Origin: Solirubrobacteraceae bacterium
GTDB lineage: Bacteria > Actinomycetota > Thermoleophilia > Solirubrobacterales > Solirubrobacteraceae
Length of the DNA: 64,000 nt
Assembly: GCA_035503075.1 (NCBI GenBank)
Contig: DATJTT010000019.1
Span: 11,929-75,928, forward strand
Direction of reading: 5' to 3'
Of this stretch, positions 1-43,554 are shown piece after piece. Every line of letters begins with the position of its first letter. The first letter of the stretch is position 1. The position numbers were made by a program, and so were the translations under genes. The notes under the pieces were generated by a model. The model was not told the origin of the DNA, made no database searches, and worked only from the letters and a program-made list of their open reading frames with translations.

Positions 1-69
1 GTCTGCGGTCGGGACGCCCGAAGCACCCGGGCACGTGAGCGTCAACGAAGTCGAATTGTTCGCGACCCG

Positions 70-1053
70 CTAGCGGGAGGAGCGTTTGCCGGGCGCGCGT
101 TTGGCGCCTGCGGCCCGCGCTTTCGCACCCGCGCCCGCGCGTTTGCCCGGAGCGCCTTTCGAGACCGCCGCGCGTCCTCGGCCCGCGCTCGCGCCGCTCG
201 ACCACAGCTCATCGACGAACGCCGCGATCTCCCCTGTCAGCCGCGTTGGCTGTAGACGCAGCTCGACCAGCGAGTTGGCCATCAGCAGTCGCGCGTTCGG
301 CAGCTCCTTGACGAGGCCGTCGGCGTCGGAGAACGGGTGCACCGGATCGCGCGGGTGCCCGAGCACGAGCGTCGGTGTCGCGAAGGTGGCGCGCTCGCTG
401 CGCGGCGGGGCGATGCGCCCGAAGAACAGCCCTTGCAGCAGCGCGCCGCTCGGCCCCGGTTCCTGGCGGACGAGGTCGAGGGCGACGTTGCCGTAATGCG
501 GCAGCACGCCCCGCGGGACCGCGCGCGTGACGCGCGCCAGCAGCTTCATCGCCGGCTCGCCGAACGTCAGCATCACGAGCAGCGGCGTGAACGTGAGCGC
601 GCTCCACAACAGGCCGTTGTCGAGCACCGGCATCTCGATCACCATGCCCCGCAGGCGCTCGGGATCGTGCGCGGCGAGCTCCAGCGCGACGTTCGCGCCC
701 AGCGACGTTCCCATCACGACCGCCTGCTCGATTTGCAGGTGGTCCATCAGCGCCACCACCTGTGTCGCGTAGGTGGCCATCGAGTAGCGCCACATGTCGC
801 GCGGGCGATCGGAGCGGCCGTGGCCGAGCAGGTCGAGCGTGATCACGCGGTTGCCGCGCGCCGCCAGATCTTCGGCGAGCGGCCGGTGCATCTCCTGCGA
901 GAGCAGCAGCCCGTGCAGCAGGATCAGCGCGCGTCCGTTCGCCGGCGCGCTCCGGGCGGTGCGCCCGCGCACGCCTCCGGCGCCCAGCGCCGCCGGTCCG
1001 CCGCCGAACTCCGTGTAGGCGATCCGCTGGCCGTCGAGCTTGAAGTACGGCAT
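70..1053 (-). CDS. alpha/beta fold hydrolase
   Basis: LHGLLLS oxyanion region, DLLGHGRS, nucleophile elbow GTSLGA, late DPVHP; low-complexity basic C-terminal tail. Confidence 0.85.
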   Translation of the reverse strand: MPYFKLDGQRIAYTEFGGGPAALGAGGVRGRTARSAPANGRALILLHGLLLSQEMHRPLAEDLAARGNRVITLDLLGHGRSDRPRDMWRYSMATYATQVVALMDHLQIEQAVVMGTSLGANVALELAAHDPERLRGMVIEMPVLDNGLLWSALTFTPLLVMLTFGEPAMKLLARVTRAVPRGVLPHYGNVALDLVRQEPGPSGALLQGLFFGRIAPPRSERATFATPTLVLGHPRDPVHPFSDADGLVKELPNARLLMANSLVELRLQPTRLTGEIAAFVDELWSSGASAGRGRAAVSKGAPGKRAGAGAKARAAGAKRAPGKRSSR

Positions 1054-5408: not shown

Positions 5409-6344
5409 ATGCAGCTCGAGGGCATCCACCACATCAGCGCGATCACCGGCGACGCCCCGGGCAATGTCGAGTTCTATACCGGCGTGCTCGGCCTGCGCAT
5501 GGTCAAGCGGACTGTCAACCAGGACGAACCGAACATGTATCACCTGTTCTACGGCGACGAGCACGGCTCACCCGGGATGGACCTGACGTTCTTCGAGTAC
5601 CCCGGCGCGGCGCGCGGGATCGCGGGCGCGGGCATGGTCCACCGGATCGTCTGGCGCGTGTCCGGTCCCGAGGCGCTCGAGTTCTGGGAGGAGCGACTCG
5701 CCGGCAACGGGATCAGGGCGGAGCTCTCGGGCGGGAGCCTGCTGTTCGCCGACCCCGAGGGATTGGAGCACGAGCTCGTGCCGAGCGCCGCCGGGGACGA
5801 GCCACTGAGCGCGCACGCGCCCGAGATCCCTGGGGAGTACGCGTTGCAGGGCTTCGAGGGCGTGCGCGCGTACAGCAACGCGCCGGTGCGCAGCGAGCGC
5901 CTGCTCGGGACAGCGCTAGGCTTCACCCGAGGAGAAGGGGAGCACTGGGAGGTGCGCGGCGAGCGTAGGGGAGGCTTCTACGCCTACGATCCCGCGCCGC
6001 CGGAGATCAATCGCACCCAGGGCGCGGGCACCGTGCACCACGTCGCGTTCGCCGCCGCGATCGAGGACCTCGAGGCCTGGCGCGAGCGCGTGGCCGGGGT
6101 TGGAGCGCGCCCGACCCCGGTGATCGAACGCTTCTACTTCAAATCCGTGTACTTCCTCGAGCCGAGCGGCGTGCTGTTCGAGATCGCCACGATCGGCCCC
6201 GGCTTCGCCGTCGACGAGGACCCGGCGCACCTCGGCGAGGGCCTGTCGCTGCCGCCGCCGTTCGAGCCGATGCGCGCGCAGCTCGAAGCCAAGCTCGCGC
6301 CGCTGCCCTATCCGCCCGCGTGGCGCTTGGCCGCGTCCGGCTGA
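5409..6344 (+). CDS. VOC family ring-cleaving dioxygenase (two glyoxalase domains)
   Basis: GIHHISAIT, VKRTVNQDEP..YHLFYGD, GTVHHVAF, ERFYFKSVYFLEPSGVLFEIAT. Confidence 0.9.
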   Translation: MQLEGIHHISAITGDAPGNVEFYTGVLGLRMVKRTVNQDEPNMYHLFYGDEHGSPGMDLTFFEYPGAARGIAGAGMVHRIVWRVSGPEALEFWEERLAGNGIRAELSGGSLLFADPEGLEHELVPSAAGDEPLSAHAPEIPGEYALQGFEGVRAYSNAPVRSERLLGTALGFTRGEGEHWEVRGERRGGFYAYDPAPPEINRTQGAGTVHHVAFAAAIEDLEAWRERVAGVGARPTPVIERFYFKSVYFLEPSGVLFEIATIGPGFAVDEDPAHLGEGLSLPPPFEPMRAQLEAKLAPLPYPPAWRLAASG

Positions 6345-6370
6345 CCCGCCGCCGGTCGCCGTCGCCCGAG

Positions 6371-7309
6371 CTAGGCGGCCGCGTGCCGGCGCGAGCGCGG
6401 CGAGCGCCGCGCGAGCACCTCACCCCAGTCGGCGTCCTCGATCCGCCCCGGCTGCGTCTGCGCCAAGAACTCGCGCAGCACGCGCGCCACCCCGTCGGGG
6501 TCTTCCAGGTGGGGAAAGTGCGCGGCGTCCGGAAGCGTCCTGAAGAAGCTGTGGGGGATCGCCTCGTGCGCGCGGCGCCCGTGCGCGATCGGGATCGTGT
6601 TGTCGCGCTCGCCCCACACGATCATCGTCGGCATCGTCTCGAGCAGGTACAGCCGATCGGTCGCGCTCACCCGCTGGCCGTGCACGTCGATCACCGCGCG
6701 CAGCGTGTGCAGGAACGCCTGGCGGGCGTCCGCGTTCTCGAGCGGGCGCAGCGCCCGCGCGATCGCCTGCAGGTGCACGCCGCTCGAGATCGCGCGCTCG
6801 CGCATGCGCCGGCCCGCGCCGGCGAGCGCGCCGAGCAGGCGTGGCTGGATCGTCAGCGACAGCAACGCCGAGGTGCCCGGCAGCGCGGCCGTGCGCAGCA
6901 TCGGGCTGACCTCGTGTCCGAGGCCGCCGCTCGAGATCAGCACCAGCCGTTCGACGCGCTGGGGGAACTGGTAGAAGAACTGCATCGCCACGCCGCCGCC
7001 CAGCGAGTGTCCGACGATGCTCGCGCGCTCGACCCCGATCGCCGCGAGCAGGTCGCGAATGCTGGCCGCGTGCGCGCCGAGCGAGTAGTCGCCGCGCGGC
7101 GCCGCCGAGTCGCCGTGGCCGATCAGATCGGGGGCCAGCACCGTGTGATCGCGGGCCAGGTCGAGCGCCACCTGCTGCCAGTGGCTCGATGAGTTGAGCA
7201 TGCCATGGATCAGGACCACGGGTGGGCCGGCGCCCGCGATCCGATAGATCACGCGACGGCCGTGCAACGCGATCTCCCACTCCTCAAAATCTCTTGCCCG
7301 CAGTCCCAC
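6371..7309 (-). CDS. alpha/beta fold hydrolase
   Basis: VLIHG, PDLIGHGDS, GHSLGG, WGERD, AAHFPH catalytic triad motifs. Confidence 0.9.
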   Translation of the reverse strand: MGLRARDFEEWEIALHGRRVIYRIAGAGPPVVLIHGMLNSSSHWQQVALDLARDHTVLAPDLIGHGDSAAPRGDYSLGAHAASIRDLLAAIGVERASIVGHSLGGGVAMQFFYQFPQRVERLVLISSGGLGHEVSPMLRTAALPGTSALLSLTIQPRLLGALAGAGRRMRERAISSGVHLQAIARALRPLENADARQAFLHTLRAVIDVHGQRVSATDRLYLLETMPTMIVWGERDNTIPIAHGRRAHEAIPHSFFRTLPDAAHFPHLEDPDGVARVLREFLAQTQPGRIEDADWGEVLARRSPRSRRHAAA

Positions 7310-9921: not shown

Positions 9922-11880
9922 TCACTGCGCCGCCGCCGAGCTGCAGCCGCCCGCCGGCGCGACCCCCGCGAAGCGCTGCACGCGGTTGTTGTCGGCGTCG
10001 GCGACCAGCAGCGCGCCCGCGCAGTCGATCGACAGGCCCGCGGGGTCGCTCAGCTCGCCCGGGGCCGCGCCAGGCGCGCCCCATGCGCGCACGAAGCGCC
10101 CGTCTGCGTCGAACTCCTCGATGCGGTCGTTGCCGCCGTCCGCCACGAACACCTCGCCGCGGGCATCCACTGCGATGCCGTCCGGGGACTCGAACCTTCC
10201 TGGCCCGCGACCCGCGCCGCCCCACGCGCGCACGTAGCGACCTGCTGCGGTGAACTCCGCGATCCGGTCGGCGCCGACCTCGACCACGTACACCGCGCCC
10301 GACCGCGCCGTCGCGAGCGCGACCGGAGCGTGAAGCCGGGCGGCGCTCGAGCCCGCATCGCCCCAGGACCCGAGCACCGCGCCCGCCGGGGAGTAGCGCT
10401 TGACCAGGCCTTCGCCGGTATCCGCGACGTACACGTCGCCTTCGCGACCAACCGCCAGCCCGTCCGGCCGCTCGAGGCGTCGCGCTGCGGGCGTCCCAAC
10501 CCCGCCGCCGAGCGTCCCGAGCAGTTCGCCTTCCGCGCTCAGGTGGCGCACCAGGTCGTTTTCCTGGTCTGTCACCCACAGCGTGCCGTCAGCAGCGAGC
10601 GCGATGGCGACGGGCTCGAACAGGTGTTCACCGAGGATCGCCGCGCCGCCGTAAAAGCTTTCGCGGTAGGCGAGCCGGTGGTCGAACAGCTCCACGCGCC
10701 CGCCCACCGTGTCCGCGACGAGCGCCCCGCCTTCGGGCGTCGCGGCGACGTCGCGCGGCAGCATGAACTGGCCATAGGAGCGAGCGGAGACCCCCCAGGC
10801 GCCGAGCCGCCGGCCCGTCGCGCCCAGGATGTCGACCTCATCGGCGGCGGCGTCGGCCACATACACCAGGCCGGAGCGCGAGACGGCGACGGCGCGCGGG
10901 TAGCTCACCTCTTCCGCGCCGAAGTTCGGGTGCAGGCCTTCGCTCGGGCCCTGTGAGGGCGCAAGCGGCCAGGCGGCCAGGAAGCGCAGCTCGGGGCTCA
11001 GCTCAACGACGCGGTGGTTGTTGTCGTCGGCCACATACACCCGTCCGGCCGGGCCGACGGCGACGTCGAACGGGCTCGTGAACTGTCCTTCCCCCGACCC
11101 GAGGCCGCCGGCCTCGCGGGCATATGGACCCCGGGTCCGGAACGCGACGATCCGATCGTTGCCCGTGTCCGCCACGTACAGCTCCTCGCCGCTCACCGCC
11201 AGGCCGTGCGGGCTCTCCAGCTGCCCGGGACCATGGCCCGGCCCGCCGAGGACGAGCGCGTGCGTGCCGTCCAGCGTGAAGCGCTCGATCCGATCGTTGC
11301 CCGTGTCCGCCACGTACACGAAGTCGCCGGACACCGCGATCCCGCCGCCCGGGGGCACGCCCGGCCCGCCGCTGCCGAACTCGAACTGTCCGGGCCGCGA
11401 GCCGGGCTCGCCCCAGGCGCGCACGAAGCGACCTTCGGCATCGAACTGCTCCACGCGGTCATGTTCCGAGTCGACCACATAGACCTCGCCGGCTGCGCTC
11501 ACCGCCAGACCCCCGACCGCGCCGAACTGTCCGGCGCCCGTGCCGCGCGCGCCCCACTGGCCGAGGAAGCGCCCGCCCGCGCTGAAGCGCTGCACGACAT
11601 AGCTGTACTGGTCGGCGACATACACATCGCCGTCGGGCGCGACGGCGAGCGCCTCCGGGTAGCGCAGCACGCCTTCGCCTCGCCGCCCGAGGATCGCCAC
11701 CGAGCTGTACGGACACGGCTCGGCGCCCGGACACGCCCGGCCATGCGCGCCCGCCGCCCGCCGCGCGCGTTCACCGGCACCCGATGGCGCGTCGGCGAAG
11801 GCGCCCAACGCCACCGTCAGCGCGAGCGTGAGCGCGACCAGGGCGTATAGGCTGAGCACGAGGCACTGCAGGCGGTACAT
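9922..11880 (-). CDS. secreted NHL-repeat protein (12 repeats, probable double beta-propeller)
   Basis: N-terminal hydrophobic signal; 12 P.G.AV..G.VYVAD..N.R..F repeats counted by eye. Confidence 0.85.
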   Translation of the reverse strand: MYRLQCLVLSLYALVALTLALTVALGAFADAPSGAGERARRAAGAHGRACPGAEPCPYSSVAILGRRGEGVLRYPEALAVAPDGDVYVADQYSYVVQRFSAGGRFLGQWGARGTGAGQFGAVGGLAVSAAGEVYVVDSEHDRVEQFDAEGRFVRAWGEPGSRPGQFEFGSGGPGVPPGGGIAVSGDFVYVADTGNDRIERFTLDGTHALVLGGPGHGPGQLESPHGLAVSGEELYVADTGNDRIVAFRTRGPYAREAGGLGSGEGQFTSPFDVAVGPAGRVYVADDNNHRVVELSPELRFLAAWPLAPSQGPSEGLHPNFGAEEVSYPRAVAVSRSGLVYVADAAADEVDILGATGRRLGAWGVSARSYGQFMLPRDVAATPEGGALVADTVGGRVELFDHRLAYRESFYGGAAILGEHLFEPVAIALAADGTLWVTDQENDLVRHLSAEGELLGTLGGGVGTPAARRLERPDGLAVGREGDVYVADTGEGLVKRYSPAGAVLGSWGDAGSSAARLHAPVALATARSGAVYVVEVGADRIAEFTAAGRYVRAWGGAGRGPGRFESPDGIAVDARGEVFVADGGNDRIEEFDADGRFVRAWGAPGAAPGELSDPAGLSIDCAGALLVADADNNRVQRFAGVAPAGGCSSAAAQ

Positions 11881-30920: not shown

Positions 30921-33320
30921 TCAGCGACGCAGCAGGTACGTGCGTGTGACGGTGGTGCGCAGCCCGGTGGGGCTGGCGGCGACCACGTGCACGTGCGCGC
31001 GCAGCTCGTCCGAGCGGCCGAGGGCGCGGCGCAGCCGGCGCACGGCGCCGGCCGCGAGCGCCAGGCGCACACGGGCTGCCTTGCGCGCCCGCAGGGCGCG
31101 GGCGGCGGCGATCAGCGCCACCGAGCGGCTCCGGCGCAGGGGGGAGAGGGTGGCGGTGACGAGCACGCGGCAGTCGCGCTTGCAGCTGACGGCGAGGGTG
31201 AGCGCCCGGTCGGAGAGCACGCCCGAGCTGGGCGGGACGGTGAGGCGCAGCACCGGGGGGAGGTTCGGCGGGGGCGGCCACGTTCCCGGGGCGAGACAGC
31301 CGGTGCCGGCGGGGGAGTCCATCTGGAAGCGCTGCACGCGGTTGTTGTCGGTGTCGGCGACGTACACGTCGCCTTCGCAGCCGATCGCGATGGCGGTGGG
31401 TTGGGAGAAGGACCCGAGACCCACCCCGCGCAGGCCCCACTTGTAGAGGAAGCGCCCTTCGGGCGCGAACGCCTGCACGCGGTCGTTCCGGCTGTCCACC
31501 ACGTACACGTCGCCGGCGGCGTCCACGGCGATCCCGGCGGGGGAGCGAAAGCGTCCGTCGGCGGTGCCTCCGGAGCCCCATTCGGCGAGCTCGGCGCCGC
31601 CCGCGGAGAGCTCCACGACGCGGTCGTCGCCGGTGTCGGACACGTACACGTCCCCGTCGGGCGCCACGGCGACCCCTTCGGGATGCTCGAAGCCCGTCGC
31701 GCCGCTGCCGGCGGCGCCGTCGGCCCCTTCGGCGCCCCACTTGGCCTGCAGCTTGCCTTCGGGGCCGTACACGAGGATCCGGTTGTGGTCGCTGTCGGCG
31801 ACGTAGGTCTGGTGGCTGACGGGGGAGATGGCCACGGCGCCGGCGCCCTCGAGCTCCGCCCCGCCGAGCTCGGCGGGCCCGCCGATTTCGCCCAGGTAGG
31901 CGCCTTCGCCCCACAGGCGCACGATGCGCGAGTTGCCGGTGTCGGCGACGTACACCGACCCGGCCGAGTCGACGGCGATGCCCGCGGGGGAGGAGAAGAG
32001 GCCGTCGACCCCCCCGGCGCCCGTCCAACTGCCGAGGTAGGAGTCGCTGCCGGCGGCGAAGCGCTCGATGCGCCCGTCGACGGTGTCGGCGACGAGCAGC
32101 TCCCCTTCCGGTTGCACGGCGAGGCCGGTGGGGGCGGTCAGCTCGCCGGGGCCGCGGGCGGAGACGCCGAAGGAGCGCATGTATTTCCCGTGGGGGTCGA
32201 ACACCTCGATCCGGTCGTTGGCGGTGTCGGCGACGTAGGTGTCGCCGGCGGGGTCGCTGGCGAGGGCGCGCGGGAAGTCGAGCTCGCCCGCTTTCGAGCC
32301 TTCTTCGCCCCAGGCGCCGGCGGGGCGCAGCCGGGGGCTGAGCTTGACCACGCGGTCGTTGCTGTCGTCGGCCACGAACACGTCCCCGGCGGCGTCGAGG
32401 GCGACGCCGTAGGGGAAGCCGGGGTGCGCGGGACCGTCGCCGGCGATCGGGGCCTCGCCTTCGTAGACGCCTTCGGGGCTGAACTTCTCGACGCGGTCGT
32501 TGTCGTCGTCGGAGACGATCACCTCGCTGTCGTCGGCGGCGACCCCGCGGGGGTAGTCGAACTGGCCGGGGCCGGAGCCCTCGGTGCCCCACGCGAGCGG
32601 TTCGCCCCCGTCGAGGTCGAAGCGCTCGACGCGGTCGTTGCCCGAGTCCGCCACGTACACGTGGTCGCCGGCCACCGCGATGCCGCCGCCGGGGGGCTGG
32701 CTGGGGTTTAGCGAGGAGCCGAAGTCGAACTCCCCGAGGCCCGACCCGCGCCTGCCCCACTGGGTGATGTATTCGCCGTCGGGGCCGAACTTCTCGATGC
32801 GGTCGTGGCTCGGGTCCACGACGTACACGTCGCCGGCGGCGTCGACGGCGAGGCCGGAGACGGGGCCGAACTGCCCCGGCCCGGCGCCGTAGGAGCCCCA
32901 CTGGGTCTCGAACTGCCCATCGGCGCTGAACTTCTGGACCACGTAGCCGAGCTGGTCGGCGACGTACACGTCGCCCTCGGTGTCCACCGCGACCGCCTCG
33001 GGGAAGCGCAGCACCCCTTCCGCGCGCTGGCCGATCGTGGTGACGTGGGCGTACGGGCAGGGGGCGGTCCGGGCGGGACCGGATCCCGGGCAGGCTTCGC
33101 CGGGGACGGGCTCGATGGCGGCTTCGCCCTGGCCCTGCGGGGACGGCGCCGGGGGCGACGCCGCGGGCGGCACGGCTCGCCCGGCGGCGGCGGGGGCGCC
33201 CGCCACCCACGCCCACGCGCACAGCGCGATCAGGGTCGCGAGCGCAGATGCGGGGGCGAGCCTGCGCCGGGGGAGCACGATCAAGGCATGAGAGCACGAA
33301 CGTGCGCGTGCGCGTCGCAC
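30921..33320 (-). CDS. secreted NHL-repeat protein (12 repeats) with a C-terminal beta-rich domain
   Basis: Signal-like N-terminus (true start uncertain, possibly about 33286); 12 NHL repeats; paralog of 9922-11880. Confidence 0.85.
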   Translation of the reverse strand: MRRARARSCSHALIVLPRRRLAPASALATLIALCAWAWVAGAPAAAGRAVPPAASPPAPSPQGQGEAAIEPVPGEACPGSGPARTAPCPYAHVTTIGQRAEGVLRFPEAVAVDTEGDVYVADQLGYVVQKFSADGQFETQWGSYGAGPGQFGPVSGLAVDAAGDVYVVDPSHDRIEKFGPDGEYITQWGRRGSGLGEFDFGSSLNPSQPPGGGIAVAGDHVYVADSGNDRVERFDLDGGEPLAWGTEGSGPGQFDYPRGVAADDSEVIVSDDDNDRVEKFSPEGVYEGEAPIAGDGPAHPGFPYGVALDAAGDVFVADDSNDRVVKLSPRLRPAGAWGEEGSKAGELDFPRALASDPAGDTYVADTANDRIEVFDPHGKYMRSFGVSARGPGELTAPTGLAVQPEGELLVADTVDGRIERFAAGSDSYLGSWTGAGGVDGLFSSPAGIAVDSAGSVYVADTGNSRIVRLWGEGAYLGEIGGPAELGGAELEGAGAVAISPVSHQTYVADSDHNRILVYGPEGKLQAKWGAEGADGAAGSGATGFEHPEGVAVAPDGDVYVSDTGDDRVVELSAGGAELAEWGSGGTADGRFRSPAGIAVDAAGDVYVVDSRNDRVQAFAPEGRFLYKWGLRGVGLGSFSQPTAIAIGCEGDVYVADTDNNRVQRFQMDSPAGTGCLAPGTWPPPPNLPPVLRLTVPPSSGVLSDRALTLAVSCKRDCRVLVTATLSPLRRSRSVALIAAARALRARKAARVRLALAAGAVRRLRRALGRSDELRAHVHVVAASPTGLRTTVTRTYLLRR

Positions 33321-34950: not shown

Positions 34951-36447
34951 GTGATGATCCGACAGGGTCCCCTGGCCGGGCGCTACCCCGCCGCGGCGGC
35001 GATGGTGATGTTCGCCTTGATCCCCTACCTGGCCCTGTCGGCGGCGATCGGGCCGGTCACCCCGATCATCGCGCGCCAGCTCCACACGAGCTTGCAGACG
35101 TTGAGCCTGGGGTCCGGCTTGGGCAACGCCGCCTACGCCGTCGGGACGGTGCTCGCGGTGCAGTTCGCCCAGCATCTGCCCCAGCGGCGAATGATGGTCC
35201 TGTACGTCGTGCTGCTCGTCCTCGGGTCGGTGCTGGAGGCGGCGGCGCAGAGCCCGGGGACGTTCATCGCCGGCCACGTGCTGCAGGGCCTGTGCACCAG
35301 CCTGCTGCTGATCGCGGCGGTGCCGCCGCTGGCGCTCGGCTTCGGCGCGGAGAAGCTGCGCTACACGGCGGTGATCATGAGCATGTGCATCTTCGGCGCG
35401 GTCGCGCTCGGGCCGGTGGTGGGCGGCCTTCAGGCCGGCGCCAACGCCTGGCGGCCGCTGTTCTGGGTCATCGCCGGCATCTCGGCCACCGCGTTGGTGC
35501 TGTCGCTGTTGACCTTCGAGGATGCCCCCCCGGCTGACGCGAGCGCCCCGGTCGCCCCGGTCGCGATCGCGCTGGCCGCGGTCGGCCCGGTCGCGGCCTT
35601 CTACGGCGCCTCGCAGTTGCTGACGCACAAGTTCGTCGAGGGCCGCACGCTCGCGCCGCTGCTCGGCGGGCTGGCGGTGATCGTGACGCTGATCGTCTAC
35701 CAGTACCGCGCCCGGCGGCCGCTGCTGACGATCCGCAGCATGCTCTCGAGCACGATCCCGGTTGCGGGGATCGTGATCGCCCTGTTCGCGGCGGCGGCGT
35801 CCGTGTCGGCGAGCGCGCTGACCGCCAGCCTGCTGGCGGGGCGCTACAGCGCCCTGCACGTCGGCCTGCTGTACCTGCCGGAGCTCGCCGGTGCGGTCCT
35901 GACGGCGATCGCCCTCGGGATCGTGATCGAGACGCGAAGGCTGCAGTACCTGCCGCTGGTCGGGATGGCGTTCCTCGCCGCCGGCATCGGCGTGTTCCGG
36001 ATCGAGCTCCCGCCCACTCAGGGTCTCACGCTGGCGGGCTCCGCGCTGACGGGGATCGGCCTCGGCGCGACGGTCGCGCCGGCGCTGTTCGCCGCCGGCT
36101 TCTCGCTGCCGGCCGCCAACCTGCAGCGCGTGTTCGCGATCGTCGAGATGATGCGGGCGGTGGCCGCGTTCATGATCGCGCCGATCTTCGCCCATTTCGC
36201 CGCGACCGTCGGCGGCAACGCCACGAACGGCACCGGCATCGCGCTGTGGATCGGGCTGGGGCTGGCGCTCGGCGGGGGCGCGCTCGCGGTGCTGATCTAC
36301 GTGCTGGGCGGCGCACGTCCGCAGACCCCAGATATGGAGGCGTTCCTGGGCGGCGAAGGACCGGGATGGCCCTCGCCGCCGCTGCTCGACGCCGTCCGCA
36401 GCCGCTCGCTGCGCCCACGCCAAGTCGAGGAGGCGGCGCGGCCATGA
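34951..36447 (+). CDS. MFS transporter
   Basis: Multi-TM; GHVLQGL, LGPVVGG motifs. Confidence 0.82.
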   Translation: MMIRQGPLAGRYPAAAAMVMFALIPYLALSAAIGPVTPIIARQLHTSLQTLSLGSGLGNAAYAVGTVLAVQFAQHLPQRRMMVLYVVLLVLGSVLEAAAQSPGTFIAGHVLQGLCTSLLLIAAVPPLALGFGAEKLRYTAVIMSMCIFGAVALGPVVGGLQAGANAWRPLFWVIAGISATALVLSLLTFEDAPPADASAPVAPVAIALAAVGPVAAFYGASQLLTHKFVEGRTLAPLLGGLAVIVTLIVYQYRARRPLLTIRSMLSSTIPVAGIVIALFAAAASVSASALTASLLAGRYSALHVGLLYLPELAGAVLTAIALGIVIETRRLQYLPLVGMAFLAAGIGVFRIELPPTQGLTLAGSALTGIGLGATVAPALFAAGFSLPAANLQRVFAIVEMMRAVAAFMIAPIFAHFAATVGGNATNGTGIALWIGLGLALGGGALAVLIYVLGGARPQTPDMEAFLGGEGPGWPSPPLLDAVRSRSLRPRQVEEAARP

Positions 36448-36950
36448 CGACGGCCACGACCACGTCCGGCCCCGTGCTGTTCGCCTATGACGGCTCGGAG
36501 CTGGCGAACTACGCGATCGAAGAGGTGGGACGCCTGCTGGAGGGCAACGCGCGTCACGCGCTCGTGCTGATCGTGTGGAGACCCTTCGACGTCGGCTTCG
36601 CGCCGGTCGGCGGGTTCAACTTCGACGCCGAGCAGATCGCCGAGGTGAGAGAGGCCGCGCAGGAGACGGCCGCGGCCGGAGCGGCGATCGCCCGGGCCGC
36701 GGGATTCACGGCAGACAGCCTGGCCGTCGAGGGCGCGCCGCCGTGGAAGGCGATCGCTGACACCGCCGACGAGCGGCAAGCCTGCCTGATCGTGCTCGGC
36801 TCTCACGGGCGCAGCGGACTCGCCGGTGCGCTGGTGGGGAGCGTCGCGGGCGCCGTGGCGGCGCACTCGCGACGCTCGGTGCTGATCGTGCACCGGCCGG
36901 CCGACCCCCCGGAACCGCCAGGGAGCGCCCGCGAGCGCGCCAACCGTTGA
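36444..36950 (+). CDS. universal stress protein (UspA)
   Basis: LFAYDGS, IVLGSHGRSG...GSVA; ATGA overlap with the MFS. Confidence 0.88.
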   Translation: MTTATTTSGPVLFAYDGSELANYAIEEVGRLLEGNARHALVLIVWRPFDVGFAPVGGFNFDAEQIAEVREAAQETAAAGAAIARAAGFTADSLAVEGAPPWKAIADTADERQACLIVLGSHGRSGLAGALVGSVAGAVAAHSRRSVLIVHRPADPPEPPGSARERANR

Positions 36951-36974: not shown

Positions 36975-37219
36975 ATGCGTGAGCAGGAGCTGACCGTGAC
37001 TACCGCGGATGCAGAGATGACGACCTTCGCGGCGCATCCGGAGACGAGCGCCGCGCTCCCCGTCGCGGTCCTGCACATGGACGGTGTCGGCTACCGCGAG
37101 CAGATCAAGCACAACGCGCGGCGGTTCGCCGCCGAGGGCTACTATTGCGTCGCGCCCGAGCTCGAGCGCCAGGGCGTCAACGGGTCCGTGGAGCGGCTCC
37201 CGGCTGAGAGCGCGGGCGG

Positions 37220-37223
<4 letters not shown>
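36975..37223 (+). pseudogene. dienelactone hydrolase N-terminal fragment
   Basis: MDGVGYREQIK..ARRFAAEGYYCVAPEL, then divergence; catalytic Cys/Asp/His region missing. Confidence 0.7.
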
Positions 37224-37630
<407 letters not shown>

Positions 37631-37862
37631 GGCTTCTCCGCGGCCCTGTGCGCTTCGACGATCTCCGGCGCCGGAACGTCGCGTGCCCAAAGTAGCGCAC
37701 CCGGCCGGGCGGCGCCTGCCGCCGAGAGGACGCCGCAAGCTCACCTGTCGCCGGGACTACGCCGCCCTCAGGCGCCTGATCGCGATCATCCGGCGAGCGC
37801 CGAAGTGGTACAGTTCGACTCTCCGGCAGGCGGTCGAGGACAACAGGGGAGGAGCGGTGAGG

Positions 37863-39119: not shown

Positions 39120-39267
39120 GCGGACGACGCTCCGCTCGAAGTCCGCGCGGTTGACGGCGAGGATGTACATGGGCGACTCCGAGCCCGCTTTCTCGGATGC
39201 CCCCGGCCGACCGTCCAGAAGTGGGCTGGTCGTTCAGAAATGATTGGCTCGCCACGTCGAAGCGGAC

Positions 39268-39681
39268 TCAGTGCTGCTCCCGCTCGGAACGGTAGATCTC
39301 GATCAGCGACTGCATCAGCTTCCAGCCGATCGCGCCGTTCTCCTCGACGATCGGGCGGAAGTCCCAGAAGGTGACGCCGGAGAGCAGCAGGTCCGTGGCA
39401 GCCTTGACGGTCGCCGTGCGCACACCCGCGTCGATCAGGGCCATCTCGCCGAAGTATTCGCCGGCGTGCATCGTGCGGTGCTCGACTCCGTCGATCAGCA
39501 CGGTCGCCTCGCCCGAGACGATGACAAAGAAAGCGGCGGCGCCCGAGCCCTGCTGGATCACCGTCTCGCCGGCAGAGAAGCGCCGCTCCTTGAAGACGCT
39601 CGCGATGCGAGCAAGCTCGGCCGCGTCCAGCTCGCCGAACAGGGGGACCTGTCCGAGGACGTCGATCGGCGCTCCGTTCAT
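39268..39681 (-). CDS. stand-alone cyclic-nucleotide-binding domain protein
   Basis: VPLFGEL, GETVIQQG, phosphate-binding cassette GEYFGEMALIDAGVRTATV; no HTH. Confidence 0.9.
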   Translation of the reverse strand: MNGAPIDVLGQVPLFGELDAAELARIASVFKERRFSAGETVIQQGSGAAAFFVIVSGEATVLIDGVEHRTMHAGEYFGEMALIDAGVRTATVKAATDLLLSGVTFWDFRPIVEENGAIGWKLMQSLIEIYRSEREQH

Positions 39682-39727
39682 TGCCCTCGGGAGCCGACCC
39701 GGAAGGACGTCCGGGGTGGGGGGGCGA

Positions 39728-40546
39728 TCACGTGCCCGCCCTCGTCACGGCCCGGCACTGAAGCAGATAGAGGGTGCCACCGGCGATCGCCCACTCGATG
39801 TCGCGGGCCGGTCCATAGACCTCCTCACAGCGTCCCGCCAGCGCGTTGAGCGCAGCGAGCTGCTGATCTTCCAGGCACGGGCGTTCGACCAGCTCGGCGG
39901 CGAGCTCTTCCGCGAAGGTGCCTCCATCGGGGAGCGAGCGGATCGCGACCGACTTGCGGCCTGGCCGGCGCTCGAGGACCTCGCCGCTGCGAGCCACGCG
40001 GAAGCTGTCCGGGATCACCAGGCCGGCGACCACCGCCTCGCCCAGGCCGAGGGTGGCCTCGATGACCCGCTCGTCCTCACCGGACACCGGGTTCTGCGTG
40101 AACATCACACCCGCCGTTTCGGGATCGAGGAGCACCTGCACGACGACTCCGACGCTCGGGCGGACGAACAGGCCCACGCGCTGGCGGTACGTGATGGCCG
40201 AGTCGGAGTTGGCGGACCACCAGACCTCGCTCAGCGCCGAGATCAGCTCCTCGGAGCCGCGGACGTTCAGGAGCGTCATGTGCTGTCCGGCGAAGCTGGC
40301 GTCGGCGCCGTCCTCGTCGACGGCCGAGGAGCGGACCGCCAGCGGGCCCCGCAGCGAGGCGACGGCTTGCGCTACCTCCCGAATGGCCGCCTCGTCGCGG
40401 CCCGCCACCGCGTCGACCACGTCACCGGCGAGCGCCACCCCGGGGGGCACCGGAAGCCCATCGCGAAGCGCCTGCCCCAGGTCGACGGCCTTCGAGCCGA
40501 ACAAGGCCGTCTCATGGGCGTCGATCAGGGGAACGACCTGGCTCAC
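39728..40546 (-). CDS. PEP-synthase/PPDK-type ATP-grasp (nucleotide-binding) domain protein
   Basis: GSKA..L....GLPVPPG, AVRSSAVDED...SFAGQ, GLGEAVVAG, DIEWAI...LYLLQCRAVT. Confidence 0.88.
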   Translation of the reverse strand: MSQVVPLIDAHETALFGSKAVDLGQALRDGLPVPPGVALAGDVVDAVAGRDEAAIREVAQAVASLRGPLAVRSSAVDEDGADASFAGQHMTLLNVRGSEELISALSEVWWSANSDSAITYRQRVGLFVRPSVGVVVQVLLDPETAGVMFTQNPVSGEDERVIEATLGLGEAVVAGLVIPDSFRVARSGEVLERRPGRKSVAIRSLPDGGTFAEELAAELVERPCLEDQQLAALNALAGRCEEVYGPARDIEWAIAGGTLYLLQCRAVTRAGT

Positions 40547-42183
40547 ACGAACACCGTCACCTCTCCGGACTCCCCATCGACGCGGACGCGCATCCCGTCC
40601 GCGATCCGGTCCGTCGCCTCGCGCGTGCCGACCACCCCGGGAATGCCGTACTCCCGCGCCACGATCGCCGAATGCGAGAGCAGCCCGCCGCTGTCGGTGA
40701 CGATCGCCCCGAGCAGTGGCAGAAGGATGTTGAAGGCCTCGCTCGTGGACTCGGTCACGAGCACGTCGCCCTTCATGATCCGGTCGAATTCGGCGGGTCC
40801 GGCGATCAGCCGGGCCGGCCCCTCGTACACGCCGCGGCTCGCAGCGAGGCCGCGCAGCAGATGCTCTTCGTGCTGCTCCTCGGAGCCACCGAGCATTTCG
40901 CCCATCACGATCCCCATCGCCTGCATCACGCGCGCGGCGGCGGGAGGGAGCCCGGAGGAGTCCGGCGGGGGACTCGGCTCGGCTCCGATAAAAGCAGGCG
41001 CCTCCTTGGCCGTGTGGGTCGCGCGGTACTCGGCGTGGGCCGCAAGCTCCCCGGCCGTCGGCTCCCGGGCCCCCGAGAGCAGCGCGCACATCTCATCGAC
41101 CGTCGCATCGACCAGGTGCTCGGGCGTCCCAATGCGGCCTCGCGCGGCCAACCGCCTGCCGGCGGCCAGCACGGCGCGGCGCATCAGGCCGGATGCCCAG
41201 ATGTCGCTGAACACACCGCGTTCGTCGCGCAGCCGATACATCAGCCGCGCCTCTCCGAGAAGCTCATCGAACTCGCCGCGGTGCTCCTCGGGAACCTTGG
41301 CGCGCACGCCGGCGGTCAACTCCCGGACGTCCCCGTCCTCCGCGTCGCGGCCGACCGCGGCGATCCGGATCGCCCTGAGCAGCACGTCGGGAAGCTCGAG
41401 CGCGCAAGGACCCGAGATGTCAAAGCCGTCAAGCAGGCGCCAGCCCACGAGGTCCAAGTAGGCGCTCACGGCCGCGCCGGTCTCGCCGTCCAGGCCGCGC
41501 AGCTCCTCCAGCACCTTCGCGGGCTCGCCCTCGGACGCCAGCAGCTCGCGGGCGCGGGGGTCGTTGGCCGTGGCCGCGACGAGCTGCTCGAGCTCGGCGG
41601 ATGCGCCCGCGGAGACCGGGGCCGCGCCGCGCAGCAGACCGAGCAGCTGGGAAGAGGGAAGCCCCGTCCAGGCACCGGCGTGCGCCAGGAAATCCCCAGT
41701 GGGGACCATCGCGGCGGCCGTGAAGCGCATGTGCTGGGTGATCATCGCGGCGTGGTGCTCGTGGCAGCGCTTCAGGTAACCGGCAAGCTCGACATCGCTC
41801 AGCTCCTCCGGGTCGATCGCCTGGATGGCGCGGTGTGCGGCGATCGACGCGGGCTTGGCCTCCTCATCCCACTCGCGCAGCTGCTCACGCCAGAGCTTGG
41901 CGCCGAAGACCTCTCCGGCGCGCCGGATTCGCGCCGGGACGTCCTCCGCGGCGGCGGGCCTCATCATCGTGTAAGAGAAACCGCCCGGATAGGCGGTGTC
42001 CAACGTATCGATCAGGATTCCGTAGAACTGCGTGAACTCGCCGAAGCCCAGTCTGAAGGGCTCAGAGTGCGTTTCCGCCCAGTAGCGCGTGACCGGCCGC
42101 GGGAAGTGCACTGCGTCGAGTTTCCAGGACCCCGGACCGGGTGGGTCAAAATGAAGATCCGATGCCGTCTGCGCCTGGCTCAT
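40543..42183 (-). CDS. PEP-utilizing enzyme: substrate-binding domain plus phospho-His swivel (RPH/PigC-like C-terminal half)
   Basis: W.LD..HFPRP; GLAASRGVYEGPAR; TDSGGLLSHSAIVAREYGIPGVVG catalytic His. Confidence 0.85.
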   Translation of the reverse strand: MSQAQTASDLHFDPPGPGSWKLDAVHFPRPVTRYWAETHSEPFRLGFGEFTQFYGILIDTLDTAYPGGFSYTMMRPAAAEDVPARIRRAGEVFGAKLWREQLREWDEEAKPASIAAHRAIQAIDPEELSDVELAGYLKRCHEHHAAMITQHMRFTAAAMVPTGDFLAHAGAWTGLPSSQLLGLLRGAAPVSAGASAELEQLVAATANDPRARELLASEGEPAKVLEELRGLDGETGAAVSAYLDLVGWRLLDGFDISGPCALELPDVLLRAIRIAAVGRDAEDGDVRELTAGVRAKVPEEHRGEFDELLGEARLMYRLRDERGVFSDIWASGLMRRAVLAAGRRLAARGRIGTPEHLVDATVDEMCALLSGAREPTAGELAAHAEYRATHTAKEAPAFIGAEPSPPPDSSGLPPAAARVMQAMGIVMGEMLGGSEEQHEEHLLRGLAASRGVYEGPARLIAGPAEFDRIMKGDVLVTESTSEAFNILLPLLGAIVTDSGGLLSHSAIVAREYGIPGVVGTREATDRIADGMRVRVDGESGEVTVFV

Positions 42184-42366
42184 TGATTCCCCCTGTGCTC
42201 GTCGTGGCCGGCGCGGAAGCCCGCGCGCGTTGAACCCATTCCTACAGCATCGCAGCCGGCGGCGCGCGCCCGCCGCGGGCGCAATCGGCCGGTCCTTGGG
42301 CGAGCTCTCGATCAGCGCAAGGCATCGCGCCGTTCACGACGCGCCTACGGCTCGGCCGGCGTTTGA

Positions 42367-42825
42367 CTAACTGCCCTCGAGCGAGGCTTCCACCGTGACA
42401 CCGATGCCCTCGGTGCGCATGCCCAGCCTCTCCATGCACCGGCTCATCGCCGCTTGCGCCACCACCTCGAGATGTGTCTCCTCGACGCCCGCTACGCGTC
42501 CCGAGATGCGGCAGGTGATTTCGCGCAGTGCCGCGCCTGTGGCGTCCGCTCCCTCACCTGAGAGCGTCAGCGTCAGGTAGCTGACGAGCTCGCGAGCCTG
42601 GGTTCCTTCCGTGACGAGCTGCACCGCGACGAACCAAGTGAAGACGCTGCCGATCGCTCCGGCGAGCAGCTCGCCGGGCAACGTCGCCAGCGGATCCGTC
42701 GCCTCGGGATCCACGTTGAGCGACAACAACGGCGCTATCGAATGGCTGCCCACGCTCAATCGCGGCGCGCCATCGGGCGGATGGCCAAGCCATCTGATCG
42801 TGGCCTCTCGCTTGAGGGTGGTCAT
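42367..42825 (-). CDS. OsmC/Ohr-like fold protein, divergent
   Basis: A.IRW.G....G..RL, P.ELLAGA.GS.F helix; first catalytic Cys position not Cys. Confidence 0.55.
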   Translation of the reverse strand: MTTLKREATIRWLGHPPDGAPRLSVGSHSIAPLLSLNVDPEATDPLATLPGELLAGAIGSVFTWFVAVQLVTEGTQARELVSYLTLTLSGEGADATGAALREITCRISGRVAGVEETHLEVVAQAAMSRCMERLGMRTEGIGVTVEASLEGS

Positions 42826-42834
42826 GGACCCTGC

Positions 42835-43290
42835 TCAGCGCTCCGGCGCGATCAGCACAGGGCGACCGGCGTGGGCGAGCACGACGTGCGAGACGCTGCC
42901 GAGCAGCGCCGAGGCGACCGCGCCGAGTCCGCGCCGACCACAGACGATCAGGCGCGCGTCGAGCTCGTCGGCGATCTCGACGATCCTGCGACCCGCGCCC
43001 TCCCTGGCCTGCTCCACGCGAGAGCTGGCCTCAAAGCCGTGGTCACGGGCGCGCTCCACCCCCTCCTCGGCAGCGTCCGCGGCCAACTGCGCCTGCTCCT
43101 GGTCGACCGCGGCCTCATCGCCGAGGTAGCTGCCGCCAAAGCCTCCAGCCCGCGCCAGCAGCACCGACGCGGGCTGCCAGATCGTCAGCACGACCGCCGG
43201 CGCCGGATGGGCAACGAGCTCCCCCGCCGCGGCCATCGCCGCCCGCGAACCCTCCGACCCGTCGTAGCAGAACAGCACCGGTCCAGCCAT
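42835..43290 (-). CDS. universal stress protein (UspA)
   Basis: LFCYDGS, LIVCGRRGLG...LLGSVS..V. Confidence 0.88.
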   Translation of the reverse strand: MAGPVLFCYDGSEGSRAAMAAAGELVAHPAPAVVLTIWQPASVLLARAGGFGGSYLGDEAAVDQEQAQLAADAAEEGVERARDHGFEASSRVEQAREGAGRRIVEIADELDARLIVCGRRGLGAVASALLGSVSHVVLAHAGRPVLIAPER

Positions 43291-43554
43291 GAGTCTCCTC
43301 ACAACAGTCGTCTTACCCGAGCATGGACTCGGCATCCTACGCGCTGCCGGACGGGCGGACGTCTAGGTATGTCTCGACGACGTTTGACGGCGCTCACAGG
43401 AGCAAATGGCCGGTGAGGATCAGAACGGGGCTCTCGCCGGAGGTGGCCATGGGTCGCAACGCTATCGGCCCACTCGCGCTGTCAGTCGATCGCAGGCGTG
43501 GCGGGGCGACGCACGAACCTCCGGGTCAGCTACGCTCGGCGCGATCGCCAAGCC

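Follow-up and report, generated by a model that had tools for sequence, protein, structure and literature searches.

The window analysed here comprises 64,000 nucleotides (nt) of contig DATJTT010000019.1 from a Solirubrobacteraceae bacterium. On its minus strand lies a row of three genes: g1 encodes a predicted dikinase large subunit resembling rifamycin phosphotransferase (RPH), g2 a separate ATP-grasp subunit and g3 a stand-alone cyclic-nucleotide-binding (CNB) protein. This trio, its relatives and the possible role of the CNB protein as a sensor of the enzyme are the subject of this analysis. The G+C content of the window, whose DNA stems from a wetland metagenome, is about 70%. The closest homologues of the window genes occur in metagenome-assembled genomes (MAGs) of Solirubrobacteraceae, and no paralogues of g1, g2 or g3 were found in the window. 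The features of the locus (aa, amino acids; ORF, open reading frame) are listed in the direction of transcription:

42184-42366, minus strand: 183 nt of intergenic DNA upstream of g1, bounded on its far side by an OsmC-like ORF, with a GGGGGA ribosome-binding site
42183 (ATG) to 40545-40543 (TGA), minus strand: g1, 546 aa, predicted dikinase large subunit
g1 residues about 1-430, minus strand: RPH-like helical substrate-binding domain (AlphaFold2/Foldseek)
g1 residues about 435-546, minus strand: phospho-His swivel domain (Pfam, AlphaFold2/Foldseek)
40672-40674, minus strand: codon of His504, which is predicted to carry the phosphate and belongs to the motif TDSGGLLSH
40543-40546, minus strand: GTGA overlap of the g1 stop (TGA) and the g2 start (GTG), read from the sequence
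40546 (GTG) to 39730-39728 (TGA), minus strand: g2, 272 aa, small ATP-grasp (ATP-binding) subunit
39682-39727, minus strand: spacer of 46 nt between g2 and g3, with a GAGGG Shine-Dalgarno-like site ahead of the g3 ATG
39681 (ATG) to 39270-39268 (TGA), minus strand: g3, 137 aa, stand-alone CNB protein
39409-39453, minus strand: phosphate-binding cassette of g3, aa 77-91, FGEMALIDAGVRTAT, read from the sequence

The GTGA overlap would imply translational coupling of g1 and g2, and the same 4-nt overlap recurs in four related loci (L001, L004, L088 and L089). Most of the 120 best-matching clusters of g1 homologues, all with 70-90% identity, have the same length of 546 aa. The window sequence at 39200-42400 recurs without change in a metagenome contig of 7330 nt obtained independently, and a contig of a second metagenome run shows no difference at the g1/g2 junction. 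Because the domains stand in permuted order, a conventional gene could not be restored by any single frameshift. A frameshift or assembly artefact is ruled out by these conserved lengths, the identical independent contigs and the domain order; the frameshift that might have joined both halves, which the original prediction for this DNA had asked to be looked for, does not occur. Deletions of 1 nt at 39972 and 42267 were seen in minor short contigs (90-95% alike) of two wetland metagenome runs. These variants come from divergent relatives, and the main contig is identical to the window.

The assignment of g1 is based on its domains, its conserved residues and its predicted fold. A Pfam match at aa 471-540 (E 6.4e-21) identifies the PEP-utilizers mobile domain, and in precomputed Pfam annotation the N-terminal part of g1 homologues is covered by PF27448 ('Rph_4th'). 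Near the C-terminus, TDSGGLLSH504 fits the catalytic motif T/S-x-x-G-G-x-x-x-H, which has been defined for HpeH, CreH, PpsA and RPH (PMC12167813). In an alignment of 41 family sequences H504, G499, R510 and E511 are invariant and an RLRDER motif is nearly so, with D320, E321 and R322 at least 90% conserved. The family profile aligns this motif with the YREYPKY region of RPH, a conserved catalytic Arg/Glu/Lys block that is retained even in distant clades (Stogios et al.). The AlphaFold2 (AF2) model of g1, calculated with the 41-sequence alignment, reached a pLDDT of 93.5 and a pTM of 0.92. Searched with Foldseek, the Listeria monocytogenes RPH (RPH-Lm) was the sole structure in the PDB that matched g1 along its entire length (E 2e-17, TMq 0.60-0.62, 18-19% identity, about 590 columns). 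Structures of phosphoenolpyruvate (PEP) synthase, pyruvate phosphate dikinase (PPDK), pyruvate kinase and Enzyme I match the swivel domain alone, those of PEP synthase and PPDK with low TM-scores. PEP synthase and PPDK were also rejected as identities for the enzyme: their structures match the swivel only, and the C-terminal TIM-barrel is missing, as neither g1 nor g2 has a Pfam match to a PEP/pyruvate-binding TIM-barrel domain.

For g2, the PPDK_N match in Pfam has an E-value of 1.6e-59 and the best match in the PDB is RPH's ATP-grasp domain (5hv6, E 1.1e-38). The motifs AVRSSAVDEDGADASFAGQ (AVRSSA..ED...SFAGQ), GVMFT.NP and DIEWA...LLQCRAVT align with RPH too. Compared with RPH, g2 is shorter by about 55 residues of the ATP-grasp domain (RPH residues 66-119), and its N-terminus aligns residue for residue with the starts of its homologues (MKKVVPF...).

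The third gene carries the cNMP_binding domain (PF00027; E 1.2e-15, 57.7 bits against a gathering score of 27.5). Its cassette, F77-G-E-M-A-L-I-D-A-G-V-R88-T-A-T, is intact. Among 37 split and fused sequences the conservation of the F, G, E, A and L positions of this cassette reaches at least 90%, and in R-x-A-T the Arg and the second Thr never vary. In the PDB g3 matches the CNB domains of PKG, PKA-R, MloK1 and HCN, and in NCBIfam the CNB model of Pat matches it at E 9e-11. The original prediction had described gene 1 as a substrate domain plus phospho-His swivel, gene 2 as an ATP-grasp domain whose start overlaps as GTGA, and gene 3 as a lone domain for binding cyclic nucleoside monophosphates (cNMP), 46 nt further on and with an intact FGE...RTA cassette. 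The Pfam matches of all three genes, the RPH-like fold of g1 and the sequence at these positions agree with this description.

Two other identities were considered for g3 and rejected. The first is a CRP/FNR transcription factor: this 137-aa protein lacks the C-terminal helix-turn-helix. No helix-turn-helix or other DNA-binding domain was detected in g3, in which PF00027 is the sole match above the Pfam cut-off, and the CRP model aligns with it over model residues 16-127 of 214 only. The best 120 homologues of g3 are all stand-alone proteins of 130-150 aa, and many of their contigs have the same length as those of g1 matches. Many stand-alone homologues of 136-147 aa (P0273-P0390) were named 'CRP/FNR family transcriptional regulator' by JGI; this name is misleading, since g3 has no DNA-binding domain and PF00027 is the sole precomputed Pfam domain of the homologues. 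The second rejected identity is a Pycsar anti-phage effector. Effectors of this kind sense cCMP or cUMP, and g3 has no fusion to a TIR or transmembrane part, its similarity in PADLOC is that of a generic CNB domain and there is no adjacent cyclase gene in the window. PADLOC gave no defence-system matches for g1 and g2.

The original prediction presented the split and the permuted order of the domains as a surprise. This view did not hold, as enzymes of the same design have already been characterised. HpeHI, CreHI and PpsAB are two-component dikinases with a RIF-BD-like plus swivel large subunit and a separate small ATP-grasp subunit (PMC12167813), and the subunits of AcvAB are divided in a like manner (PMC12624787). 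Their hosts are Rhodococcus rhodochrous GD02 (HpeHI), Corynebacterium glutamicum (CreHI), Thauera aromatica (PpsAB) and Sphingobium SYK-6 (AcvAB). In the HpeHI/CreHI/PpsAB class the conserved His is essential and AMP is the product nucleotide (PMC12167813). The characterised two-component members have about 45% pairwise identity and are encoded in phenolic catabolic clusters together with carboxylase and phosphatase.

With PpsAB, CreHI, HpeHI and AcvAB the window trio has in common the separate, adjacent ATP-grasp polypeptide, the large subunit made of substrate and swivel domains, and the gene order. The Foldseek picture, in which RPH matches the large subunit throughout, is shared with HpeH. 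The Ser before the catalytic His of g1 occurs in PpsA and CreH as well, and the position of the regulatory Thr of PEP synthase is occupied by Leu in g1 and by Met in HpeH. However, the window pair is smaller, with 546 + 272 aa (59 + 29 kDa) versus about 640 + 340 aa or more (71 + 41 kDa), and it is not accompanied by an aromatic catabolic cluster. Judged by the scores of the NCBIfam PRK08296 models, for which the best value of g1 is about 125 bits against cut-offs of 578-730, the pair is also distant from the characterised two-component dikinases. Both g1 and g2 land among the PEP synthase-like, RPH, PigC and PRK08296 models of NCBIfam, far below every curated cut-off. Because of the low PRK08296 scores we do not consider g1 an orthologue of any named enzyme. 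By its architecture the trio appears to belong to the two-component RPH-like dikinase subfamily, probably as an orthologue of no characterised member.

A further difference concerns the CNB partner of the window trio, which has been reported for none of the characterised two-component dikinases. Phenylphosphate synthase reportedly has a third protein, PpsC, said to have been described by Schmeling and colleagues in 2004 as a 24-kDa protein with a pair of CBS domains that stimulates activity. PpsC is a small accessory protein with a fold of the nucleotide-sensing type, which is encoded after the two catalytic subunits and modulates rather than catalyses. The two proteins differ in fold, a CBS pair in PpsC and a CNB beta-barrel in g3, and presumably in ligand; we know of no fusion of PpsC to an ATP-grasp subunit.

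Given these similarities, the trio might serve catabolism as a phenolic kinase comparable to PpsAB, CreHI, HpeHI and AcvAB, in which phenol, cresol or a hydroxyphenylethanone would be trapped as phosphate ester for carboxylation and g3 would be stimulatory like PpsC. Although the two-component architecture, the gene order and the His motif with a Ser ahead of the His are alike, no carboxylase, phosphatase or other aromatic-catabolic or ring-cleavage genes were found within about 5 kb of the trio or in the orthologous loci examined. The flanks of orthologous loci are wholly different, the subunits are much smaller, the PRK08296 scores lie far under the cut-offs, and sister clades are paired with drug-efflux-type transporters of the major facilitator superfamily (MFS) and with TetR instead of catabolic genes. 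Such a role is therefore regarded as rather unlikely. Since two-component dikinases with this division of labour are characterised already, the novelty of the locus is to be sought in its cNMP module rather than in the split, and this module appears to be new.

The family was searched with HMMER (clusters at 50% identity, E <=1e-30), which gave 975 clusters. Most of them are split forms of 520-590 aa, and a few are single chains in conventional order with 868-980 aa. One single chain of 878 aa (P0239) has the permuted order of substrate domain, His swivel (aa 499-570) and ATP-grasp (aa 663-876); it corresponds to a fusion of g1 and g2 in operon order, opposite to RPH. To compare gene neighbourhoods, one genome per GTDB species was scanned with the family alignment, and the resulting 80 loci (27-68% identity, from many phyla) were analysed by tblastn, ORF clustering and Pfam. 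The order g1-g2-CNB was observed in 11 of 11 informative GTDB loci with a g1 identity of at least 57%; L008 and L012, which end inside or just after g2, were left out of this count. The same order was seen in L001-L004, which were fetched via g1 homologues, and all three neighbourhoods reached from g3 homologues have g1-g2 directly upstream. The identity of g3 declines broadly in step with that of g1 and g2. Since the flanks of CNB-linked loci are unrelated and their G+C content varies (0.53-0.73), the module seems to move as a unit. An all-against-all clustering of the flank ORFs revealed no conserved neighbours of the CNB-type module. In a Solirubrobacteraceae-like locus (L086:2756-4426), g1 is cut to a swivel-only ORF of 127 aa beside intact g2 and g3, 278 nt from the upstream cupin gene; this ORF is a probable deletion remnant. 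The g1 of L087 is broken into two ORFs.

In nine of the loci (L005, L006, L007, L009, L011, L013, L016, L018 and L040) ATP-grasp and CNB domains are encoded by a single ORF of 416-484 aa, and Pfam finds PPDK_N and cNMP_binding in nine of nine. One cluster with PF01326 and PF00027 (P0399), derived from the L019 contig, brings the number of sister loci with the fusion to ten. With the ORF of L009 as query, the best 120 clusters all have PF01326 plus PF00027 and at least 84% identity, which puts the fusion in at least 120 protein clusters. In context look-ups the fused genes lie right behind g1, with a 4-nt overlap and in unrelated neighbourhoods. MAGs that contain the fused form bear the labels Bradyrhizobium, for example GCA_035308285.1, Acidobacteriota and Candidatus Dormibacteraeota, and the form is abundant in environmental metagenomes. 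Automatic annotation already shows the architecture ('pyruvate phosphate dikinase-like enzyme/cyclic nucleotide-binding protein'). By alignment, the fused protein consists of the window g2, a variable linker of 9-25 residues and the window g3. The question of whether the cNMP gene is syntenic, raised with the original prediction, can thus be answered: it is syntenic in all informative close homologues and fused to the ATP-grasp gene in sister lineages.

These results bear on the possibility that g3 is functionally unrelated to g1 and g2, being a CRP-like regulator or general cAMP receptor that is merely co-located. Strict synteny across unrelated flanks, in-frame fusion to the ATP-grasp domain in sister lineages and an identity that broadly tracks that of g1 and g2 all speak against it, as does the lack of a helix-turn-helix domain in a protein of 137 aa with PF00027 as sole match above cut-off. 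In its favour stand the JGI name of the homologues and the fact that g3 has its own start codon and a Shine-Dalgarno-like site after the 46-nt gap. We regard this explanation as very unlikely.

A rough neighbour-joining tree of g1 was used to approach the history of the module. In it the CNB-linked sequences all fall into a single clade, within which the split forms (window, L001 and L004) are nested inside the fused ones; the nearest outgroups are pairs linked to an MFS gene or bare pairs. Because of this nesting, g3 is most likely a regulatory domain that has become detached at the linker. In the alignment the 46-nt spacer between g2 and g3 stands where the fused homologues have their linker. 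At this junction the window g2 ends with ...AVTRAGT* and that of L004 with ...TRAGP*, and the fused protein of L005 continues with ...TRAGGGETPQADPRVEAL; the TRAG remnant kept here supports a fission at the linker. The simplest history that the sequences suggest would be that a CNB domain was recruited once, at the C-terminal end of the ATP-grasp subunit, and that the linker was later split in the Solirubrobacteraceae-like lineage.

More distant relatives combine the same catalytic pair with other partners. At a g1 identity of 37-50% the order g1-g2 is kept and no CNB was detected. In about 19 of the loci (L021-L041 and others), g2 is followed by a DHA2/EmrB-like MFS gene that is orthologous among them and co-evolves with g1; in L015 and L048 this MFS gene precedes g1. 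The position at the C-terminus of ATP-grasp is thus taken by CNB in the window clade and by a drug-efflux-type MFS protein in relatives, once as a fusion. That ORF (L044:7728-9947, plus strand) has 739 aa, contains PPDK_N (E 1.8e-61) and a complete MFS_1 domain (E 1.9e-56) and follows a g1 homologue immediately; either a genuine fusion of enzyme and transporter or a missed stop or frameshift in the MAG would account for it. The nearest MFS gene of the window (34951-36447) was considered as a counterpart of the sister-clade gene, and it is unrelated. At a g1 identity of 27-38%, g2 is found ahead of g1 or was not detected nearby, and in 15 of these remoter loci a TetR gene lies immediately upstream. 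Because relatives are coupled to DHA2 efflux and TetR, a xenobiotic, an antibiotic or another diffusible compound is more likely as substrate than a central metabolite.

Among antibiotics, rifamycin itself is unlikely. A split rifamycin phosphotransferase conferring resistance would be in line with RPH-Lm as the sole full-length structural match of g1, with the RPH ATP-grasp domain as best match of g2 and with the efflux pumps and TetR genes of the relatives. However, the scores for the NCBIfam RPH models are far too low, with 92.8 (g1) and 177.7 bits (g2) against a cut-off of 999 for NF041857, and 66.5 (g1) and 133.3 bits (g2) against 1700 for NF000283, the protein moreover being split. The identity of g1 to RPH is 18-19%, distant clades are without the RIF-binding blocks and one tested distant member gives no resistance (Stogios et al.), and a conserved palindromic element is absent upstream of the trio. 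Hence the chance that the trio confers rifamycin resistance appears minimal, lower than for any other role considered here.

We also considered a PigC/RedH-like ATP-dependent ligase of secondary metabolism, or a kinase with a macromolecular substrate such as a protein. Enzymes of the PigC type have the same three domains, and g1 aligns weakly with RedH at aa 121-544 (80.6 bits). Compared with cut-offs of 1300 and 1350, however, the NCBIfam scores (75 and 80.6 bits with g1, 161.5 and 174.3 bits with g2) are very low, and in none of the loci examined is the trio part of a biosynthetic cluster, which makes this assignment highly improbable. The original prediction, which had already found no support for rifamycin resistance, is in accordance with the low scores for both RPH and PigC/RedH.

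Taken together, our preferred interpretation, to which we assign a probability of roughly 0.65, is that the trio is a self-contained small-molecule dikinase of the RPH type, made of two components and joined by a detachable sensor of cyclic nucleotides. This is in line with the two-subunit small-molecule phosphotransferase, possibly gated by cAMP or cGMP, that had been proposed originally, for which the RPH-like fold of g1, the synteny of the cNMP gene and the fusions to ATP-grasp now speak. In such a system g2 would bind Mg-ATP and dock transiently on g1. His504 of the g1 swivel would then attack the beta-phosphate of ATP and become first pyrophosphorylated and then phosphorylated, with the gamma-phosphate lost as Pi and AMP released. 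The swivel would return to the helical substrate-binding domain of g1, where the phosphate may be passed to a hydroxyl or similar group of a small molecule. Finally, g3 would act in trans: upon binding of a cyclic nucleotide by its cassette it could switch the activity of g2, or the docking of g2 on g1, on or off.

The single elements of this model differ in their strength. The domain content, the RPH-like fold, the catalytic motifs, the synteny, the fusions and a tree topology that points to fission are observations. The dikinase chemistry (ATP to AMP, Pi and phosphorylated substrate) is inferred from the homology with PpsAB, HpeHI and RPH. RPH (Listeria monocytogenes; PDB 5FBS, 5FBT and 5HV1) has three catalytic domains in common with g1 and g2, and by this analogy the swivelling phospho-His mechanism would be common to both. 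The order of RPH is different, however, as it is a single chain of ATP-grasp, substrate and His domains with no CNB module. Because of the fusions, the CNB domain very likely works on the ATP-grasp subunit. As the C-terminus of ATP-grasp leads into the substrate domain in single-chain RPH, the CNB domain may be located near the inter-subunit docking face. A contact between g2 and g3, the identity of the ligand and the direction of the regulation are inferred.

Control of an enzyme by a CNB domain has known precedents. In mycobacterial Pat (Rv0998/MSMEG_5458) the CNB domain is fused to a GNAT acetyltransferase and controls the enzyme in cis, and the regulatory subunit of eukaryotic protein kinase A (PKA) exerts its control in trans. 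The canonical CNB fold with the FGE...R[ST]A cassette is common to both and to the proteins described here, so that Pat resembles the fused homologues and the PKA regulatory subunit resembles the window g3. In contrast to these systems, the output enzyme of the window trio is a predicted phospho-His swivel dikinase. Neither such a dikinase as an output of cNMP signalling nor another link between CNB and dikinases was found in the literature searched. We consider the chances about even that this is the first case in which a cyclic-nucleotide second messenger directly gates a phospho-His swivel dikinase, the window having a PKA-like in trans form with the sensor detached from ATP-grasp. Through it, cNMP signalling may be connected to the chemical inactivation, or the trapping, of a diffusible compound that is toxic or serves as a signal.

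Several points weigh against this interpretation and have to be taken into account. The CNB-linked dikinase clade is so far known from sequence and models alone, and the locus was present in none of the RNA runs that were searched for transcripts. The low PRK08296 scores of g1 given above also belong here. The AF2 model of the fused homologue P0399 is poor (pLDDT 70.7, pTM 0.56) and its linker is disordered, for which reason no interface of the CNB domain was deduced from it. With regard to the ligand, CNB folds are able to bind other molecules. The PycTIR models of PADLOC match g3 in its CNB part alone (E 1e-15), and the CNB parts of Pycsar proteins fit it as well as the domains of PKA and PKG do. 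We saw no cyclase gene in the window ORFs scanned, although a systematic search was not made. Noise is introduced by the taxonomic labels of MAGs and by frameshifted long-read assemblies (L019 and L087).

Class III cyclase genes were seen near the trio in two related loci. In L085 such a gene (5987-7138; Ad_Cy_reg and Guanylate_cyc) is located 1.6 kb downstream, and in L001 the first gene (1-1560, cut by the locus end; Guanylate_cyc and AAA_16) is located 4.4 kb upstream. Because genes of this kind are common in actinobacteria, we take them as a hint only. A partial gene that adjoins the trio in L002 (annotated cyclase/AAA, N-terminus missing) has no match in the window.

The promoter of the trio is presumably located in the 183-nt region upstream of g1. 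No sigma-70-like promoter was found upstream, and two terminator-like matches lie inside coding sequence, which corresponds to chance level. A comparison of 14 upstream regions of the CNB clade revealed neither a shared motif nor a TGTGA-N6-TCACA box. A GC-rich imperfect inverted repeat at 42256-42292, about 75-110 nt upstream of g1, has arms of 18 nt with 78% complementarity; as it is not found upstream of orthologues, it is probably compositional. This agrees with the earlier statement that no convincing palindromic operator was seen here, this imperfect and non-conserved palindrome being the only one.

Within about 5 kb of the trio there are genes for universal stress protein (USP), an OsmC-like ORF, subtilase and cupin, and overall the neighbours include two USP genes, the OsmC-like ORF, subtilase, cupin, MarR, thiolase and MFS genes. 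The two USP genes flank the trio at 36438-36950 (plus strand) and 42835-43335 (minus strand). The OsmC-like ORF (42367-42825, minus strand, 152 aa) has no Pfam match and lies 9 nt from the USP gene and 183 nt before g1. The USP/OsmC-like arrangement beside the trio is not conserved in orthologous loci. An ORF of 82 aa (36975-37223, plus strand) matches only the first 54 of 217 positions of the dienelactone hydrolase family and is probably what remains of a truncated gene; it runs convergently towards the cupin gene (37220-37633), and the two overlap at their ends. Two proteins with NHL-repeat beta-propellers are encoded at 9922-11880 (minus strand, 652 aa) and 30921-33320 (minus strand, 799 aa). 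Elsewhere in the window, several MFS transporters, a P450, a GST-like protein and an Orn/Lys/Arg decarboxylase are present.

The subfamily of two-component RPH-like dikinases was recognised not long ago, and every member characterised so far serves catabolism by phosphorylating phenolics. The loci compared here show one catalytic core wired to differing accessories, namely a fused or free CNB sensor, a DHA2-type efflux pump and a TetR repressor. The question of the substrate bears on the issue of a 'proto-resistome' that has been raised for relatives of RPH. If cultured relatives carry the fused form, an experimental system may be within reach. If the CNB domain indeed controls the activity, the trio would represent a new enzymatic output of bacterial cNMP signalling, and the fused and split forms would offer a natural pair for the study of a regulatory domain acting in cis versus in trans.

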